Shown here: piece after piece, positions 2,670 to 48,583 of the stretch | Layout of the letters: each line of letters opens with the position of its first letter | How positions within the stretch are numbered: the stretch's first letter is position 1 | Assembly: GCA_963831755.1 (NCBI GenBank) | Contig: CAWHRC010000022.1 | Location: 64,937 to 128,936 of the forward strand | Reading direction: 5' to 3' | Origin: an uncultured Acidobacteriota bacterium | Lineage (GTDB): Bacteria; Acidobacteriota; Vicinamibacteria; Fen-336 | Length of the DNA stretch: 64,000 nt | Notes under the pieces: generated by a model | What the model saw: the letters and a program-made list of their open reading frames with translations, nothing else | What the model was told of the DNA's origin: nothing | Database searches by the model: none | Translations under genes and position numbers: made by a program

Positions 2670-4514
2670 ATGGCTGAGGCACCCGTCCTTCCCGCGTGGG
2701 CCGAGGAGATGCGCCAGGTCTTCCGCGCCGGCGCGACGAGCCAGTTCGTCCTCCACGGCAACGTCTTCGACCTGGTCCCGGCGCCCGACGGCCAGGGAGG
2801 GACCGCCTGGACCTCGCTTGCCGACTTCCTGACCGGCACCATGTTCCAGCCGTTCGACGTGGTGATCCGCTACGACCGCGGCCGCGGGGTCCGCATCGAG
2901 CCGCCCGACGCGCGCCGGCCCGACGCGTACAAGGGCGTCGAGGAGGTGTTTCGCTTCCTGAAGGGCGTCGACGCCTTTCGCGGGGCGCCGGCCGCCTTCG
3001 ACGCGGTGGCGGACGGCGCCCGCAAGCTCGACCTGCGCAACCAGCTGCCGCGCGACCCGAAGGGCGCGCTCGAGATCGTCGACCGCGTGCTCGCCTTCGC
3101 GCGCCAGCGGCTCAAGGTGCAGGACGGCAAGGCCGTCCCGAGCCCGCTCAAGGTCGCCGTGGTGCTCGACTACGCGCACTTCATCGCGCCACAGGGCGAC
3201 CCGATCTACGTCGCCGACCTCAGCCAGACCCTGATCCAGATCCAGGACTGGGCGGCGAACCCCGACGTCACCAGCTCCTTCGTGGCGACGGTGCTGATCA
3301 CCGAGAACCTGCTCGACCTCAACCGCGCGCTGGTCGAGAGCCCCTACAGCGCGAAGATCAAGATCGACCTGCCCAGCGCCGAGGAGATCCGCGCCTTCGT
3401 CGTCGACCTCGTTCCCGATGTCGCCGAGTTCCAGAAGGCCTCCGAGGTGACCCGCGAGGTGCTGGCGGACAAGCTGGTCGGCCTGTCGCGCGTCGCGATC
3501 CGCTCGCTCGTGAAGCGCGCACTCACCAGCGGCCAGAAGATCAGCGGCGCCTACCTCACGAAGATGAAGAAGGAGTTCATCGAGAAGGAGGCCGCGGGCC
3601 GGCTGGAGTTTCTGGAGTCCACGCGCACGCTCGACGACGTGGCCGGCCACGACCAGGCCAAGGCCTGGCTGCGCGAGGACGCGGTCCTGCTGCGGCGCGG
3701 CCGCACGATGGCGATCCCGATGGGCTACCTGCTCACCGGCCGCATCGGCACCGGCAAGACCTACCTGGTCGAGTGCCTGGCGGGCGAGATCGGCATCCCC
3801 TGCGTCGAGCTCAAGAACTTCCGCGACAAGTGGGTGGGCGCGACCGAGGGCAACCTGGAGAAGGTGTTCTCGATCCTGCACGCGCTGGGCCAGGTGATCG
3901 TCTTCGTCGACGAGGCCGACCAGATGACGGGCAAGCGCGGCGGGGGAGACGGCGACTCCGGCCTCTCCGGCCGCGTCTACGGCATGCTGGCGAAGGAGAT
4001 GTCGGACACGCGGAACCGCGGGAAGATCATCTGGATCTTCGCGACCTCGCGGCCGGACCTGGTCGAGGTCGACCTGAAGCGGCAGGGCCGGCTCGACGTG
4101 CACATCCCGCTGTTCCCGCCGGGTGACGCGGCCGGCCGCGCGGGCCTCTTCGCCGCGATGGCGCACAAGCTCAAGCTGCAGTGCAGGCCCGAGGAGCTGC
4201 CGGCGCTGCCGGACAACGACCAGATCGGCGGTAACGAGATGGAGGGCGTGCTGGTGCGCGCGCTGCGCGAGCGCGAGACGACCCTGGACAGCGAGGAGCG
4301 CGGGTCCGGCAAGGCGGTGCCGCTGCCCGACTGCATCGCGCGCGCGATCGCGGACTTCCGCCCCTCGGCCCACGTGGAGCGGCTCGAGCTGATGGACCTT
4401 CTGGCCGTCAAGGAGTGCACGGACACGCGCTTCCTGCCGGAGCGCTTCCGCACGCGCAGCCTGGCCCAGGTCAACGCCCGGATCGAGCAGCTGAAGGCGG
4501 CGATCGGCGAGTAG
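2670..4514 (+). CDS. AAA+ ATPase: a long non-ATPase N-terminal region plus one classical AAA module
   Basis: Walker A GRIGTGKT and Walker B VIVFVDEADQ, with the sensor/arginine region SRPDLVEVDLKRQGRLD. The N-terminal ~330 aa have no P-loop. Confidence 0.85.
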   Translation: MAEAPVLPAWAEEMRQVFRAGATSQFVLHGNVFDLVPAPDGQGGTAWTSLADFLTGTMFQPFDVVIRYDRGRGVRIEPPDARRPDAYKGVEEVFRFLKGVDAFRGAPAAFDAVADGARKLDLRNQLPRDPKGALEIVDRVLAFARQRLKVQDGKAVPSPLKVAVVLDYAHFIAPQGDPIYVADLSQTLIQIQDWAANPDVTSSFVATVLITENLLDLNRALVESPYSAKIKIDLPSAEEIRAFVVDLVPDVAEFQKASEVTREVLADKLVGLSRVAIRSLVKRALTSGQKISGAYLTKMKKEFIEKEAAGRLEFLESTRTLDDVAGHDQAKAWLREDAVLLRRGRTMAIPMGYLLTGRIGTGKTYLVECLAGEIGIPCVELKNFRDKWVGATEGNLEKVFSILHALGQVIVFVDEADQMTGKRGGGDGDSGLSGRVYGMLAKEMSDTRNRGKIIWIFATSRPDLVEVDLKRQGRLDVHIPLFPPGDAAGRAGLFAAMAHKLKLQCRPEELPALPDNDQIGGNEMEGVLVRALRERETTLDSEERGSGKAVPLPDCIARAIADFRPSAHVERLELMDLLAVKECTDTRFLPERFRTRSLAQVNARIEQLKAAIGE

Positions 4515-42608: not shown

Positions 42609-43810
42609 TCAGCGAACGACGCGGTCGGCGGTCACGAGGTCGGCGATCCGTCGGGCGAGGTGCAGGAGCGGCGTGCCGACGCCTCTCGAGGTTCGAGAGC
42701 AGGGCGACCACGACGCCCGCTGTCGGGCCGGGTGTAGAGGACCGTGCTGACGCGCTCCTGGCCGCCGGTGTGCCAGGCCTCGCGCCGGCCGCCGTGGAAG
42801 CCGACCGTGATCCCGAGGCCGAAGCCGGTCACCCGCCCGGTCGCGGGTCTTCTGGGGCGTCAGCATCTGCCGGAGCGTCGGGCGGTCGAGGAGCCTGCCG
42901 GAGAGGAGCGCCAGGCCGAAGCGGGCCACGTCGGGAGCCGTGCCGCACAGGCCGCCGCCGGGCACCTTGTAGCTGGTGTCCGCGAGCGCCGAGTTCAGCA
43001 GCTCGCCGCTCCCGTCGCGGACGTAGCCGCTCGCTCGGTGGGGGATGAGCGCGCGGACGTCGTCCGGCTGCGTGCTCGTCATCCCCGCGGGAGCGAACAC
43101 CTCCTCCCGCAGGACCTCGGCGAACGGCCGGCCGGCCGCGCCCTCGACGGCGCAGCCGAGCAGGCTGTAGCCGTACGTGCTGTAGAGCACCTTCGTGCCC
43201 GGCTCGAAGGCGAGGGGGTCGTCCTTGAAGAGCACGAGCCCCTCGGAGAGGGACGAGTAGCGGCGAACCTGCGGCGTGCTCGCCCGCGTCGGTAGGAGCG
43301 CACGCCGCCCTGGTGGCAGAGCAGCTGGCGCGTCGTGACCGGCCAGGGCTTGGGCGGGTAGGCGCCGCAGTAGCTCCAGACGGGCGGGTCGAGGTCCAGC
43401 CGGCCCTTCTGGGCGAGGCGCAGCGCGGCGACCGCCGTCATCGGCTTGGAGACGGAGGCGAGCCGGTAGACGGTTTCCGGGCGCCGCGACGACCTCGTTC
43501 TCGACGTCCGCGAGGCCGTAGCCTGCCGCGAAGCGCAGCTCGCCCCCGTCCCCGATCGCCACCGAGAGGCCCGGGATGCCCCGCTGCGACATCTCCTCGG
43601 CGATCGCGCGTGCGCGATCGGCCTCGGCACGAGCGGCCGGCGGCAGTCGGCGCGCGCCAGCGTCCGCGACGGCGGGTCGCGCTGCGGCGCGGCGGCTGCG
43701 GCGGCGCCGGCGGCTCGTGCCCGCCGGGGCGGCCGGCCGGGCGGCGGCGTGAGCAAGGCGACGCGCCAGGACAGCGAGACGGCGAGCGAGCGGCGACGCG
43801 GCGGCCGCAC
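42609..43810 (-). pseudogene. Serine hydrolase, beta-lactamase (class C/EstB-like) family, at least 5 frame switches
   Basis: Fragments IPGLSVAIGDGGELRFAAGYGLAD, YRLASVSKPMTA (SxxK), LLCHQGGVRSY, YSTYGYSLLGCAVE and TGFGLGITV...WHTGGQ lie in three frames. The start is uncertain. Confidence 0.7.
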
Positions 43811-43813
43811 TCG

Positions 43814-44939
43814 CTACTCCAGCCAGTCCCGGTCCCGCAGCTTCTTCGGCAGGTACTCCTCGGTGATGAAGCTGATGCCGCGCCGGGAGAGCGCCTCGAG
43901 CTCGAACTTGAGGCCGCTCCTGCACCATCTCCTGGATCTCCCGCTGCCAGCGCGGCGTGCTTGAACCAGGGGTAGGCGAGCATCTGCTTCGCGCGGCTGT
44001 TGTCGCCGTCGTCCATCTTGATGGCGACGTTCGTCGGCAGGGCGTACTTCTCCTTGTCGAAGGAAGAGAGGCCGACGAAGCGCGCGTCGGGCACCGCCAT
44101 GCGCATCGACTCGTAGGCCAGGTTGATCGAGCCCTGCTTCATGACGCTGTAGATGTAGAAGCCCCACGGGTCGTTGTCGACCAGCACGTAGACCGGCAGC
44201 TTGAGCTCGCTGTGCAGCCGCTGCACGAGCCGCCGCACGCCGCGCGGCGGCTGGCCTCCGCCGTGGACGATGATGCAGTTGTTGCGCTTCCAGAACTTGT
44301 CCTCGTTGAAGCGCGTCCAGACCGCGTCCTTCTCGATCAGCAGGACGTACTTGGCCTCGTGCTTGCGGAAGCGGATGACGTTCTCCTCGACGATCGAGGG
44401 CACCGCCCAGCCGCCGGAGCCCATGCGCCGCAGGTCGATGGTGTCGCCGCTGTCGGCGATCGGTGATCGGCCCCACCATCGAGCCCTTGCGCGCGGCGAA
44501 CAGGTGCAGCTCCTCGCGCAGGGCGTCGACGGTGACCTCGAGGTCCTCGATGATCGGATCGGACTCGTCCTGCTCCTCGAAGGTGTTCTGGCGCGTGTCG
44601 CCGATCGTGTGCTTGGCGACGTAGTAGAGGTCGCGGATGCTGGTCGTCTTGCCCGACGTCGATCAGCTCCTTGCAGGCCTCGCTGACCAGGAAGGTCTGC
44701 ATGAACTTCCTGGCCATCGACACGTTGAAGAAGTAGCGCTTCTGCTTCTGGTTGCCCAGCTCGACCAGCCGCTTCTTCTCGCTCCAGGTGACGTTGGCGA
44801 GCGAGCGCACGGGGATCTCGAGGGACGGGTTCCTGCCCTTGCTCACCGTCTTCAGCACGCCCTCGGCGAGCTTCTCGATCTTGGCCGCCGTCTTCTTCGA
44901 GACGGCGTCCGTCTTCCTGGAGGCCGCGTCCTTGCGCAT
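43814..44939 (-). pseudogene. top6A: DNA topoisomerase VI subunit A (Spo11/Top6A family), at least 4 frame switches
   Basis: Catalytic-Tyr region IRDLYY. Toprim motifs VLLIEKDAVW and YVLVDNDPWG. C-terminus GLKFELEALSRRGISFITEEYLPKKL. ATG at 44939, 4 nt after the top6B stop. Confidence 0.8.
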
Positions 44940-44943
44940 GGCG

Positions 44944-47120
44944 CTACTCCTCCTCTGCCTCGCGGCGCGCCCTCGCCTTGCGCCGGGCCTCGCGCGCCTC
45001 GAGCTCCAGCCGCCTTCTGCTCCTGCTTCATCTCCGCCGCCGTCACCTTGTGCGCCACCTCGAGGAATTCCCTCTTGATCGGACCGGGCTTCCTGCCCGT
45101 GATCTTGCCGATCGCCGCGGCCACCTCCTCGATGTAGAGCTCGAAGATGCTGCGGCGCTGCGCCTGGTAGTCGGCCGCCTTCCGCTTGCGGATGAAGGTG
45201 GCCAGCTTGCGGCCGCACTCCTGGGCCGCGAGCTGGATCTCCTTCGTGATCTCCGGGTAGTGGGCCACCGCCTCCTTGGACTCGCTGGTGAACGGCACCC
45301 AGACCGAGGCGATGTGGACGAGGAGCGCCATCGGCCCCACGGGCAGCGAGCCCTTGGGCTGGCTCAGCAGGTAGTTGCGCCAGTCGGTGCGCACGATGGC
45401 GTCGGTGATCCCGCAGGCGCCGCGCTGGAAGAGCAGCGGCACGCGGTTGGCGAAGCGGAACAGCTCGATCGTCTTGTCGGGCGGCCAGCTCCCGCCGTAG
45501 GCGAGGCCGACCTCCACCTGGAACGGGTTGCCGCGGTACACCTTCGGCGAGCGGGTGACCGTGGCGATGAAGTAGTTGTGGCCCTTGATCTTCTCGACGC
45601 CCTCTTCGGGCGGCGCGTCGGGGACCGACGGCGCGGACTCGGGATCCGCCGGCTTGCTTCGCCGCCGCCTTGCCGGCCTTCTTCGCCGGCTGCATGCCGG
45701 CCGAGTCGAGATCGAGCTGGGTGTTCTCGTCCCCGCTCTCGCCCTCGCTCTCGATCACGTTCAGGAAGCTGACCAGGCCCTTCCTCATCAGCTCGTCGCC
45801 GATCGGGCGACAGGCAGTTCGTCGGCGGGCTCATCAGCTTGGTCGCGGCGATCGCCTTGTGCAGCTCCTCCGCCAGCGCGCGGTTCTCGCCGAGGACGCG
45901 CGGCCTCGTGGCCTTCTTGCCCCAGGGCACCTTGGCCAGGATCTCGCCGGCGGCCGCGGCCGAGACGCGGCTGAAGGCCGTCTGCAGGAAGCCGCGGACG
46001 TCGTGGCTCTTCGACTCCCGCGCCATCAGCATCAGCGCGCCCAGCTCGACGCCGTGGGGGTGCGGCTTGATCTCGAGCGACTCCTTGGGCAGCTCGGTCG
46101 TGGCCCGCGGGAAGGTCAGCGTCTCGTTGCCCGGGACGGCTGGCGTTCGCGCGCTGGGCCGCGCTGACCGGCCGGCGTGTAGCGGATCGTGGCGTGCGGG
46201 TTCGCGAGCGCGGTGTGCTCGACGTAGCGGTTGACGAAGCGCTGGCCCTGCTGCCAGTTGGCGACGATCTCCAGCTCGACGCGCGTCCCGTGCTCCTGGT
46301 GCCACTCCGCGAGCGTCTCGTCGTGGGTCACGACCGGCTCGTTCTTGCGGGTGTCGATCTGGATGTCGAAGACGTGGGCCGCCTTGCTCTTGCCCACGCG
46401 GCTCGTGACGCGGATCGGCTTGCCGGTCGTGAGCTGTCCGTACATCGCCGCCGCCGAGATGCCGATGCCCTGCTGCCCGCGCGCCTGCTTCAGCCGGTGG
46501 AACTTCGAGCCGTAGAGCAGCTTGCCGAAGATCTTCGGCACCTGGACCTTGACGATGCCGGGGCCGTTGTCCTGCACGACCACGACGAAGCGGCCCTCGC
46601 CCTTGGTCAGCTCGGCGTCCGCCTTCTTCGCCTCGAGCGCGAGGTCGTGGACCTCGATCTGCAGCTCGGGCAGGATGCCGGCCTCCTCGCAGGCGTCGAG
46701 CGAGTTGTCGACGGCCTCCTTGATCGTGGTGAGCAGCGCCTTCGAGGGGTTGTCGAAGCCGAGCAGGTGGCGGTTCTTGACGAAGAACTCGGAGACGGAG
46801 ATCTCGCGCTGCCCCTGCGCCAGCGACTCGGCCGTGACGCGCGGTGCGGGCGGGCTCCGGCGCGCGGCGTCTCGGGCTCCGCGGCCGGCGGTCGGCCGCG
46901 AGCGGCTTCGCTGGGCAGCACCGGGCTGCGCCGCGCTGCGCCGGTCTGGCGGCGGTCTTCGCGGCCCTCGGCCTCGCGGCCTGCGGCTGGCGGCCGGGGC
47001 GGGTCTCTGCTGCCTCGGCGGCTGCAGGCCCTGCTCGCGAACAGGTCCAGCTGGCGGCCGGCCGATCCTTGCGGGCGTTCCTGCGTGACGGGGGTCTTCC
47101 GGGTGCTGCGGCTTCGGCAA
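44944..47120 (-). pseudogene. top6B: DNA topoisomerase VI subunit B (GHKL ATPase), at least 5 frame switches; N-terminal boundary uncertain
   Basis: Bergerat-fold motifs [17 protein letters not shown] and [10 protein letters not shown]. Transducer fragments YRGNPFQVEVGLAYGG and FANRVPLLFQRGACG. TAG at 44944-44946. A TTG at 47120 is preceded by AGGAGGAAGAGGAG. Confidence 0.75.
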
Positions 47121-47219
47121 CGGCGCTCCTCTTCCTCCTGCGGACTCCGCCCTCGGCGCCGGTCCGGCGCGCCGAGCTTAGCATCCGCCCCTGCAGCCCG
47201 GCTGCCGGATCCGCTACCA

Positions 47220-48101
47220 TGGGCGCCGATGTCCCGTCCGCGAGCGGGCCGAGTGGCTGCTGGCGACGCTCGTCGTCGTCGCCGCTGCTGAGCCGCCTGA
47301 CCGGCCGGCTGTGCGACCTGCGCCTGCCGCGGCCGCTGCTCGTGCGCGCTGATCCGCGCGTACGCCCGCGCCTTCGCCGTCGACCTCTCGGAGGCCGCGC
47401 CGCCGCTCGAGGCCTACGCGACGCTTCAACGAGTTCTTCACGCGGCGGCTCGCCGAGGGCCGGCGGCCGGTCGCACGCGAGCGCGGGCGTCGTCGTCTCG
47501 CCGTGCGACTCGCGCGTGAGCGTCGATCGGGGCGATCCCGGCCGACGGCCGGCTCGAGCAGGTCAAGGGGCCGGAGCTACTCGGTCGAGGCGCTCCTCGG
47601 CTCGGCGGAGGACGCGCGCCGCTTCGGCGGCGGCGTGCAGGCGACGCTCTACCTGAGCCCGGCCATGTACCACCGCGTCCACTCGCCGGTCGACGGCCGG
47701 ATCCGTGCCTGGCGCTACGTGCCCGGCCGCCTGTTCACCGGTCAACCGGCATCGGGCGTGCGCTCGATCCCGGGCCTCTTCACGCGCAACGAGCGCGTGT
47801 GCGTGTTCCTGCGACACGCGAGGCGCACGGGCCGCGTGGCCGTCGTGCTGGTGGGGGCGGCCAACGTCGGCCGGCATCAGCCTGGCCTTCACGCGACCTC
47901 GTCACGAACCGCGGCGCGCGCGGCGGGCGCGTCGAGCCGGCCGCGCCGATCGCGGTTCGCCGCGGCGACGAGCTCGGCGCGTTCAACCTCGGCTCGACCG
48001 TCGTGCTGCTGCTGGCCGACCCCTCGCTGGCCGCCGCTCGTGGCGGCCGGGCGAGCTCGTCCGCATGGGGCAGCCGCTGTGGCGCCGCGCCTCGAACGTA
48101 G
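47220..48101 (+). pseudogene. psd: Phosphatidylserine decarboxylase proenzyme, at least 6 frame switches
   Basis: Fragments FFTRRLAEGRRP, VVSPCDSRVS, LYLSPAMYHRVHSPVDG, NERV and the self-cleavage site FNLGSTVVLL lie in different frames. The 3' end is ambiguous. Confidence 0.65.
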
Positions 48102-48583
48102 GCGTCATCTCCGACACGCACGGGCTGCTGCGGCCCGAGGCGCTGCGCGCGCTCGCGGGCTCGCGAGGTGATCCTGCACGCCGGCGACGTCGGCGGCAGG
48201 ACGTGCTCGAGGCCCTCGCGCAGATCGCGCCGGTGCTCGCCGTCCGTGGCAACACCGACGGCGGCTGGGCGCGCCTGCTGCCGGAGCGCCGGCGTGCTCG
48301 ACCTCGGCGGCGTGCCCGCGTGCTGCTCCTCCACGATCGGGCGCTGCTGGACCGTGGCCTTCGCGCCACGCCGGGCGCCGGCGCACACCGCCTCGCAGAC
48401 GGCGGAGCGCGTCGTCGTCTTCGGCCACTCGCACCAGCCGCTCGCCGAGCGACGGGACGGCGTGCTGTGGTTCAACCCCGGCAGCGCGGGCCGCGGCGCT
48501 TCCGGCTGCCCGTCTCCGTCGGCCGACTGGTGATCGAGGGCGGCGTCGCGTGCGAGCCGACCTGCTCGACCCTCGACGTCTGA
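48065..48583 (+). pseudogene. Metallophosphoesterase (YfcE/MJ0936-like), several frame switches
   Basis: Fragments VGVISDTHG, ILHAGDVG, VRGNTDG, VVVFGHSHQP and WFNPGSAG, spread over different frames. Confidence 0.55.

Follow-up and report, generated by a model that had tools for sequence, protein, structure and literature searches.

Topoisomerase VI genes in the window

The 64-kb stretch of DNA analyzed here (the window; C22:64937-128936) belongs to the metagenome-assembled genome (MAG) of a high-GC, soil-type Acidobacteriota bacterium (6.15 Mb in 26 contigs, 72% GC, estimated completeness of 84%). It encodes a genuine two-gene DNA topoisomerase VI (topo VI), a DNA-untangling enzyme familiar chiefly from archaea, with the gene for the B subunit (top6B) followed by that for the A subunit (top6A) in the same orientation (Table 1). 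As assembled, each gene is scattered across all three reading frames, and the proteins tested were conceptual translations made after the extra bases described below had been deleted. Top6A matched the winged-helix 5Y-CAP family TP6A_N (PF04406) at 64 bits against a cutoff of 26, Topo_VI_alpha at 26 bits, the Top6A/Spo11 Toprim domain (PF21180) at 209 bits, and the NCBIfam model NF003333 at 613 bits. Its best solved structure was that of Saccharolobus (S.) shibatae Top6A (2zbk_A; 1e-80), with which the catalytic tyrosine motif IRDLYY aligned residue for residue; the Toprim glutamate and DxD residues likewise aligned (LLIEKD with VVEKD and VDNDPWG with TDADPYG). Top6B matched HATPase_c (PF02518), PF13589, Topo-VIb_trans (PF09239; 185 bits), NF003218 (732 bits), and TIGR01052 (484 bits), and its best solved structure was that of Methanosarcina (M.) mazei (2q2e_B; 1e-129). 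The N, G1, and G2 boxes of the GHKL ATPase aligned with that structure, as did TSESKEA with TSESKDA, the motif that carries the switch lysine in the H2TH/transducer part.

The archaeal enzymes of M. mazei (2Q2E) and S. shibatae (2ZBK) thus have the same two subunits, the same domains (GHKL, H2TH, and transducer in Top6B; 5Y-CAP and Toprim in Top6A), and the same aligned catalytic residues. The immunoglobulin-like C-terminal domain of M. mazei Top6B is absent here, the alignment stopping at residue 494 of 621, and a charged helical tail is found in its place. Unlike archaeal topo VI, the protein of the window also has a basic N-terminal tail of about 90 to 110 amino acids (aa), predicted to be disordered, with a Q[LM]xLF motif, and its H2TH and transducer domains are set apart by an insert of about 68 aa.

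The TAG of top6B and the ATG of top6A are 4 nt apart, separated by CGCC (...GGAGTAGCGCCATGCGC). At the C-terminal end of top6B, the conserved ...AEEE codons (GAGGAGGAG) are found 7 to 15 nt before the top6A ATG (44940-44967) and may serve as a Shine-Dalgarno-like sequence for top6A. Since these codons resemble a Shine-Dalgarno sequence, the acidic end of Top6B may be constrained at the RNA level.

An earlier note on this DNA, made from the sequence alone, had already named both subunits, their B-then-A order and 4-nt spacing, the RDLYY, Toprim E/DxD, N, G1, and G2 motifs, the low-complexity Arg/Pro/Ala-rich N terminus of Top6B, and the presence of multiple frame breaks. Pfam, NCBIfam, and structure matches agreed with the identification, the motifs were all present and aligned with the archaeal structures, and nine of the breaks could be located as insertions relative to two congeners. 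Two details had to be amended. The span given in that note ended at 47120, and top6B starts upstream of this position: its tail motif is in a different frame, and ATG codons at 47184 and 47220 are the candidate starts. The charged C-terminal tail proposed there does exist, and the RLEL with which it was said to begin arises from the base inserted at about 45008; after correction, the tail reads ...KQEQKAAELEAREARRKARARREAEEE.

Table 1. Features of the topo VI locus and its neighbors, in window coordinates
Feature	Position	Strand	Remarks
top6A	43814-44939	-	373 aa once four extra bases are removed; winged-helix/5Y-CAP, all-beta, and Toprim domains
top6B	about 47220-44944	-	About 700 aa; stop at 44944-44946; start uncertain (ATG at 47184 or 47220)
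Basic Arg/Pro/Ala-rich N-terminal tail, Top6B	46803-47220	-	Predicted to be disordered in the relative at L020
QLDLF (context GRQLDLF), beta-clamp-binding-like pentapeptide	47039-47053	-	In the N-terminal tail of Top6B
GHKL domain start, 19 residues	46746-46802	-	Putative 5' recombination junction inside its invariant 11-residue stretch
GHKL ATPase motifs	46455-46718	-	N box EAVDNSLDA, 46692-46718; G1 DNGPGI, 46554-46571; G2 RGQQGIGIS, 46455-46481
Top6B insert of about 68 aa	45569-45773	-	H2TH/transducer boundary; VSFLNVIESEG...QLDLDSAG...EKIKGHNYF
TSESKEA, transducer switch-lysine motif	45269-45289	-	From the Top6B alignment
End of charged C-terminal tail, Top6B	44944-44967	-	RREAEEE, then stop
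IRDLYY, catalytic tyrosine motif, Top6A	44621-44638	-	From the structure alignment
Toprim acidic residues, Top6A	44161-44343	-	LLIEKDAV, 44320-44343; VLVDNDPWG, 44161-44187
Extra base, top6A	43921 (+/-2 nt)	-	Versus G007 and G002; frame shift
Extra base, top6A	43953 (+/-2 nt)	-	Versus G007 and G002; frame shift
Extra base, top6A	44461 (+/-2 nt)	-	Versus G007 and G002; frame shift
Extra base, top6A	44656 (+/-2 nt)	-	Versus G007 and G002; frame shift
Extra base, top6B	~45008	-	Versus G007 and G002; frame shift
Extra base, top6B	~45661	-	Versus G007 and G002; variable region, place least certain
Extra base, top6B	~45807	-	Versus G007 and G002; CCC versus CC
Extra base, top6B	~46136	-	Versus G007 and G002
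Extra base, top6B	~46176	-	Versus G007 and G002
psd-like (phosphatidylserine-decarboxylase-like) gene	about 47352-48029	+	Divergent neighbor, frame-shifted
Metallophosphoesterase-like (mpe) gene	about 48104-48580	+	Divergent neighbor, frame-shifted; pair with psd, 47352-48580
Beta-lactamase-family serine hydrolase gene	42627-43592	-	Downstream of top6A, frame-shifted

Frame breaks in top6A and top6B

The breaks were placed by DNA alignment with two congeners in which both genes are intact, G007 (Top6B of 684 aa and Top6A of 386 aa) and G002 (Top6B of 701 aa and Top6A of about 368 aa). Nine single-base insertions and no deletions were found relative to these genomes, four in top6A and five in top6B, and the N-terminal tail of top6B contains at least two further frame changes, which brings the assembled pair to at least 11. 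Once the insertions were removed, both reading frames were free of stops. The ratio of nonsynonymous to synonymous substitution rates (dN/dS) relative to the congeners was 0.15 to 0.20, with the differences mostly at third codon positions, and purifying selection acts on both topo VI genes. Relative to the two congeners, neither top6A nor top6B showed the signs of a pseudogene, namely a mixture of insertions and deletions, nonsense substitutions, and a dN/dS ratio near 1.

Frame changes are not confined to these two genes. The psd, metallophosphoesterase, and beta-lactamase-family genes on either side are likewise broken, and a codon-usage Viterbi scan, which conservatively counted same-strand frame switches without a nearby stop, returned at least 2,340 switches genome-wide on both strands, 1,788 (76%) in the +1 direction and 552 otherwise; this total is a lower bound and not a rate, because the filter counted only two of the nine known breaks at this locus. 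The switches were patchy, with 208 of 601 10-kb bins empty compared to 14 expected from a Poisson distribution and up to 25 switches in other bins; the part of the window from 30 to 33 kb holds 12. In a 6.3-kb syntenic block, 1-nt extras in the window versus each of three congeners numbered 65/41, 58/36, and 60/31, and the corresponding counts between congeners were symmetric (44/47, 36/38, and 34/39). At 72 to 80% identity, the global DNA alignment of this block is too noisy for single insertions or deletions outside the topo VI genes; the asymmetry of 1-nt gaps is usable. Low completeness together with a small number of contigs is seen in several MAGs of the genus, and this combination is a signature of long-read MAGs rich in insertions and deletions.

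Since the same insertion bias runs through the genome in patches, the breaks were read as assembly artifacts. They are almost certainly consensus insertion errors in poorly polished patches and not the result of decay, and the genes of the organism itself would then be intact. Some points weigh against this conclusion: the arguments for it are comparative and statistical; the inserted bases lie mostly outside homopolymers (one or two of the nine lie within one), unlike the classic nanopore error signature; and gyrB and gyrA are intact although the frame-switch density of their contig is among the highest (0.83 per kb), so that the errors would have to be very uneven.

Topoisomerase inventory and distribution

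Besides topo VI, the genome encodes adjacent, unbroken gyrB (815 aa) and gyrA (840 aa) genes at C23:42861-47828, and the GyrA box reads QKRGGRG. This gyrA is the sole PF00521 locus; PF00521 (GyrA/ParC) and PF00204 (GyrB/ParE) gave one match each, and no second copy of either was found in the genome. A ParC (topo IV subunit A) identity for Top6A itself was ruled out, as the protein has no PF00521 match. Type IA topoisomerases are encoded at two loci, one of them (C7:17391-18728) cut into three pieces by frame shifts and the other (C23:71460-72752) unbroken.

The topo VI pair is normal for its lineage. TP6A_N was found in 34 of 41 relatives drawn from the genus, family, and order, including 15 of the 16 high-quality genomes, almost always in single copy, and nearly all of the 41 have exactly one PF00521 locus. 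In the sister orders of the class the situation is reversed: none of the 26 genomes in the phylum sample has Top6A, and 25 of them have two or more PF00521 matches. The second copy is full length in three complete sister-order genomes and was taken to be ParC because the GyrA box is absent from the two that were read. Topo VI and topo IV are therefore mutually exclusive within this class, which fits topo VI acting as a decatenase, and topo VI would serve as decatenase and relaxase in place of topo IV. Topo IV (ParC/ParE) has this exclusive distribution and presumably the same role, ATP-dependent decatenation and relaxation beside gyrase; the A subunits are nonhomologous, and topo VI is a type IIB enzyme with a two-gate mechanism, a class defined by strand passage that depends on ATP and by double-strand breaks with 2-nt overhangs.

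The same exclusion was sought across the phylum and not found in any strength. Top6A occurs in 50 of the 301 genomes sampled (17%), and two or more PF00521 matches occur in 7 of these 50 and in 63 of the 251 Top6A-negative genomes; the anticorrelation is not strong because most genomes carry gyrase only, with neither topo IV nor topo VI. The seven Top6A-positive genomes with two PF00521 matches count against topo VI as a topo IV substitute, the exclusion being clean only within the class.

Bacterial topo VI accompanied by gyrase and not by topo IV has been described in 17 families, including Anaeromyxobacteraceae (Allen & Maxwell 2024, PMC11302465). Acidobacteriota are absent from the family list of that paper, which terms the bacterial role of topo VI unresolved, and no paper on topo VI in Acidobacteria was found in the literature searched. 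The kind of system found here has thus been published, though not for Acidobacteriota. At least 589 stretches of the species-genome collection encode a relative. The NCBIfam models NF003332 to NF003337, which describe Top6A, bear the product name "DNA topoisomerase IV subunit A," and NCBI-annotated relatives are named accordingly; because this name is a misnomer, a genome with Top6A may look as if it carried ParC.

Origin of the operon

Among the matches listed, the closest records to Top6B (84 to 89% identity) were from MAGs labeled Acidobacteriota or Vicinamibacteria, one of them a 4.7-Mb contig, and the next closest (73 to 78%) carried Anaeromyxobacter or Anaeromyxobacteraceae labels. The window itself carries a TIGR03436 ("acidobact_VWFA") gene at 156 bits. 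In maximum-likelihood trees of both subunits, the clade of the window was supported by a Shimodaira-Hasegawa-like approximate likelihood ratio test (SH-aLRT) value of 100 and lay inside a clade (100 and 99) that is otherwise Anaeromyxobacteraceae, other Myxococcota being next. The 68-aa insert of Top6B is common only to Anaeromyxobacteraceae and the window clade among the sequences aligned. In the insert, an acidic run followed by QLDLD-[SQ]AG and a Lys-rich patch (45696-45719, minus strand) is conserved in both clades, and this stretch, past a modeled helix, is predicted to be disordered (residues 444 to 479 of the L020 model).

Two types of topo VI operon exist within the order, T1 (that of the window) and T2, which have 34 to 37% identity in Top6A and 55% in Top6B; T2 groups with other Acidobacteriota-labeled MAGs. 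T2 is carried by families f2 and f3 and, within family f1, by four genomes, of which G004 and G009 belong to the genus of the window. By Top6A bit score, T1 is carried by 16 other genomes of f1, and tblastn confirmed it in G002, G006, G007, G014, G018, and G024 as well as in G300 of the phylum sample. No genome typed has both. In G004, the divergent psd-metallophosphoesterase pair that stands upstream of T1 in the window and its congeners also stands upstream of T2, with flank identities at the level expected for congeners. This pair flanks both types in congeners; the same locus holds T2 in two congeners and in the sister families, and Anaeromyxobacteraceae topo VI loci lack these flanks. Remnants of a resident T2 top6A were searched for near the T1 operon, and none was found. 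These observations are most simply explained by in situ replacement of the resident operon by one of Myxococcota type, in which case T1 would have entered by cross-phylum transfer and displaced T2 at its own locus. It counts against this reading that the taxon labels are submitters' MAG titles plus one Acidobacteria-typical domain (TIGR03436) and that nesting inside Anaeromyxobacteraceae, as opposed to a sister position, is supported by SH-aLRT values of only 85 to 91.

The beta-lactamase-family gene that follows top6A is conserved in genomes with the operon type of the window, in which top6B and top6A are spaced by 4 nt. In the second operon type, as found at L101 (G020) and L013 (G025), the two genes lie apart, separated by about 1.4 kb or by a beta-lactamase-family gene.

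The N-terminal tail of Top6B

The GHKL domain (from 46802 downwards) is preceded in Top6B by a basic tail rich in Pro and Ala that contains the pentapeptide QLDLF; neither strand of the window codes for Q-L-x-L-F at any other site. The tail of the window runs through at least three frames; because of this and because the relatives are too variable there, its exact reading is not fixed. Two congeners have a conserved "MVAD" upstream of the tail, which may be the start codon context or, instead, promoter DNA. In G007 (L011, about 4290 to 4400) a 15-nt unit, GGCGGAGGTACCCCG, is tandemly repeated in the tail, where it reads as RAEVP or GRRYP. The QLDLF codons of this tail do not share the frame of the listed open reading frame, and the assembly of G007 therefore also has a frame problem or a change of repeat length in the tail.

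A [RK]P-Q[LM]xLF motif was found near the N terminus in all 15 readable Acidobacteriota tails, of T1 and T2 alike, as QLDLF, QMDLF, QLALF, QLTLF, QLSLF, or QMRLF. The Q, L, and F columns are 100% conserved in these 15 sequences, compared to 20 to 40% column identity elsewhere in the tail. As modeled by AlphaFold2 for the 89%-identical L020 protein, residues 1 to 83 have a predicted local distance difference test (pLDDT) score below 50, whereas the catalytic domains are confidently folded. The bacterial beta-clamp-binding consensus, reportedly defined by Dalrymple and coworkers in 2001, is QL[SD]LF, with QxxL(x)F variants, and clamp-binding motifs are expected near the C termini of DinB and MutS. 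In this genome, the sequences near the C terminus are PQLELF for DinB and RQLALF for MutS. The Top6B tail thus matches the pentapeptide and places a conserved motif in a terminal segment predicted to be disordered. It has these features and basic neighboring residues in common with known clamp clients (the N terminus of Hda and the C termini of Pol IV/DinB and MutS), and the QLELF and QLALF of the organism's own DinB and MutS resemble it. We regard the motif as a candidate clamp-binding site; the link of Top6B to the clamp is a prediction from sequence.

At the same place, the tails of Anaeromyxobacteraceae, the donor side, read QLELV, QIELV, or QLSLL, and the N-terminal tails of Nitrospirota and most Planctomycetota lack the motif. 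L063, L073, and related Nitrospira loci have no N-terminal motif and instead a long C-terminal tail with SQIALFE; L091 (Myxococcota), with EQLKLLD, and L072 (Phycisphaerales), with RNLFGE, both in long C-terminal tails, also lack the N-terminal motif. Altogether, motifs of this kind occur in the N- or C-terminal tails of several other lineages. Elsewhere in the genome of the window, a DDE transposase open reading frame occurs in at least four identical copies (C2:515300, C6:319453, C6:359733, and C9:670118), all of which contain ...DDPAHGQQQLALFNGYYGEWCYLP..., with an internal QLALF. In the literature searched, topo VI was nowhere linked to the bacterial clamp and no type II topoisomerase was described as a clamp client, and Allen & Maxwell 2024 (PMC11302465) is silent on tails and clamp motifs.

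The 5' end of top6B

The tails of the two types share extended context, for example GRPQLDLFGE. Upstream of the invariant codons at the GHKL start, all four informative sites join Acidobacteriota T1 with T2 and none join it with Anaeromyxobacteraceae; downstream of the junction the counts are 5 and 96 (4:0 versus 5:96, Fisher's exact P = 2.6e-5). The DNA distance curves cross exactly in the invariant 11-residue codons. We are moderately confident that the replacement had its 5' crossover within these codons, so that the incoming core would have been joined to the resident tail; the resident N-terminal tail would have been kept for this reason. Against a mosaic gene it must be said that the junction was picked post hoc, after inspection of the data, and that an approximately unbiased (AU) test on the 75-nt 5' segment did not reject the alternative history (P = 0.115). 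The same test on a 102-nt segment at the junction gave a P value of 0.70, trees on such short segments being underpowered, and neither history was rejected.

Discussion

Together, these results make it probable that the window encodes a functional type IIB enzyme, predicted to be a Top6B2-Top6A2 heterotetramer, whose frame breaks are artifacts, which stands in for topo IV, whose operon is a T1-for-T2 replacement, and whose tail would dock on the clamp. Two explanations would remove the enzyme, or its host, from this picture, and both appear very improbable. According to one of them, the breaks are real and mark a horizontally acquired pair of pseudogenes in decay. Such decay would suit the count of nine or more frame shifts within 3.3 kb, an operon type of foreign, Anaeromyxobacteraceae-like origin, and the sufficiency of gyrase alone in many bacteria of the phylum, but all nine located changes are +1 insertions, unaccompanied by deletions or nonsense substitutions, the dN/dS ratio is low, and intact copies stand at the same locus in congeners; moreover, the similarly biased switches elsewhere would imply thousands of pseudogenes in a 6-Mb genome of a free-living organism. 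According to the other, the contig is a mis-binned or mislabeled piece of Myxococcota (Anaeromyxobacteraceae) DNA, so that no cross-phylum transfer occurred and the genes are simply the published Anaeromyxobacter topo VI. Both trees put the window beside or inside Anaeromyxobacteraceae, Top6A matches at 85% identity are named Anaeromyxobacter sp. in NCBI, and the GC content is comparably high. This is hard to reconcile with the TIGR03436 gene in the window, with the Acidobacteriota or Vicinamibacteria labels of the nearest records listed, with the psd-metallophosphoesterase flanks that a T2-bearing congener shares at congener-level identity and Anaeromyxobacteraceae loci lack, or with the T2 operons of the other families of the order, which group with Acidobacteriota-labeled MAGs.

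The remaining alternatives concern the tail and deserve more weight, although neither is the likelier account. The similarity of T1 and T2 tails and first GHKL residues in Acidobacteriota might be convergent, an adaptation to the new host and not a trace of recombination. The informative segment is short (four sites plus the motif), the AU test lets a nonmosaic history stand, and low-complexity tails evolve fast; the sharp change in site counts at the junction, the crossing of the distance curves in invariant codons, the in situ replacement behind the same upstream flank, and the shared extended tail context speak for recombination, and we consider convergence rather unlikely. Slightly more credible, if still unlikely, is the proposal that Q[LM]xLF does not bind the clamp and that the tail is a nonspecific polycationic DNA-binding arm, the motif serving another partner or an intramolecular contact. 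A clamp role is a prediction from sequence, the terminal Phe is missing from the QLELV, QIELV, and QLSLL of the donor clade, Nitrospirota and most Planctomycetota do without the motif in their N-terminal tails, and a second QLDLD element lies inside the 68-aa insert. These points are offset by the exact match to QL[SD]LF in a terminal tail predicted to be disordered, by the invariance of Q, L, and F in all 15 Acidobacteriota tails, by the same flavor of motif in the DinB and MutS of the genome, and by the C-terminal motif of some lineages that lack the N-terminal one (SQIALFE in Nitrospira).

The nearest described systems are those of the Anaeromyxobacter dehalogenans type (PMC11302465), in which gyrase is present and topo IV absent, as here. 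The operon type is common to the window and Anaeromyxobacteraceae by the trees, by Top6B identity, and by the 68-aa insert. The host differs, as it appears to belong to Acidobacteriota, a phylum off the list of that paper; so does the setting, a locus at which congeners hold a different topo VI type; and the N-terminal tail has QLDLF where Anaeromyxobacteraceae have QLELV-type sequences. The earlier note had treated topo VI in a bacterium as a rare occurrence, and this premise is weakly supported because the gene pair is clade-wide and bacterial topo VI without topo IV has been published (PMC11302465). That note had also held that placement in a common bacterial clade would make the genes unremarkable, and this is essentially the case, given the 17 families already published; the inventory it proposed returned an intact gyrB-gyrA pair with a GyrA box, no ParC/ParE, and two type IA loci. 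Its other reservation, that the breaks might be real and disabling, found no support, as they behave like assembly insertion errors. Two practical points follow from the locus. Long-read MAGs rich in frame breaks can give ordinary genes the look of pseudogenes, and inventories of topoisomerases can go wrong where NCBI labels Top6A as "topoisomerase IV subunit A."

What seems worth keeping are the class-level exchange of topo IV and topo VI, the cross-phylum replacement in situ, and the retention of a tail with a clamp motif, all three of which are testable. The exchange, in which sister orders have ParC and no Top6A and this order the reverse, supports a role for topo VI as a decatenase. Behind replication forks, the invariant [RK]P-Q[LM]xLF motif would dock topo VI on the beta sliding clamp, and the core swap in one family would have gone by homologous recombination. 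On these grounds we tentatively propose, as a possibility that falls somewhat short of being probable, that topo VI of this order is a clamp-tethered replicative decatenase that displaced topo IV and that a later swap of its core for an Anaeromyxobacteraceae-type operon kept the host-adapted tail. If the tail binds DnaN, this would be, to our knowledge and in the literature searched, the first clamp-recruited type II topoisomerase, and retention of the clamp-like tail suggests how topo VI may be coupled to the bacterial replisome. This locus bears on the use that bacteria make of an archaeal-type type II topoisomerase. A cross-phylum swap of topo VI types in situ would show that the core of the enzyme is interchangeable, and the whole, if true, would amount to a natural domain-swap experiment, showing that host specificity in a horizontally mobile type II topoisomerase lies with the tail and not with the core.

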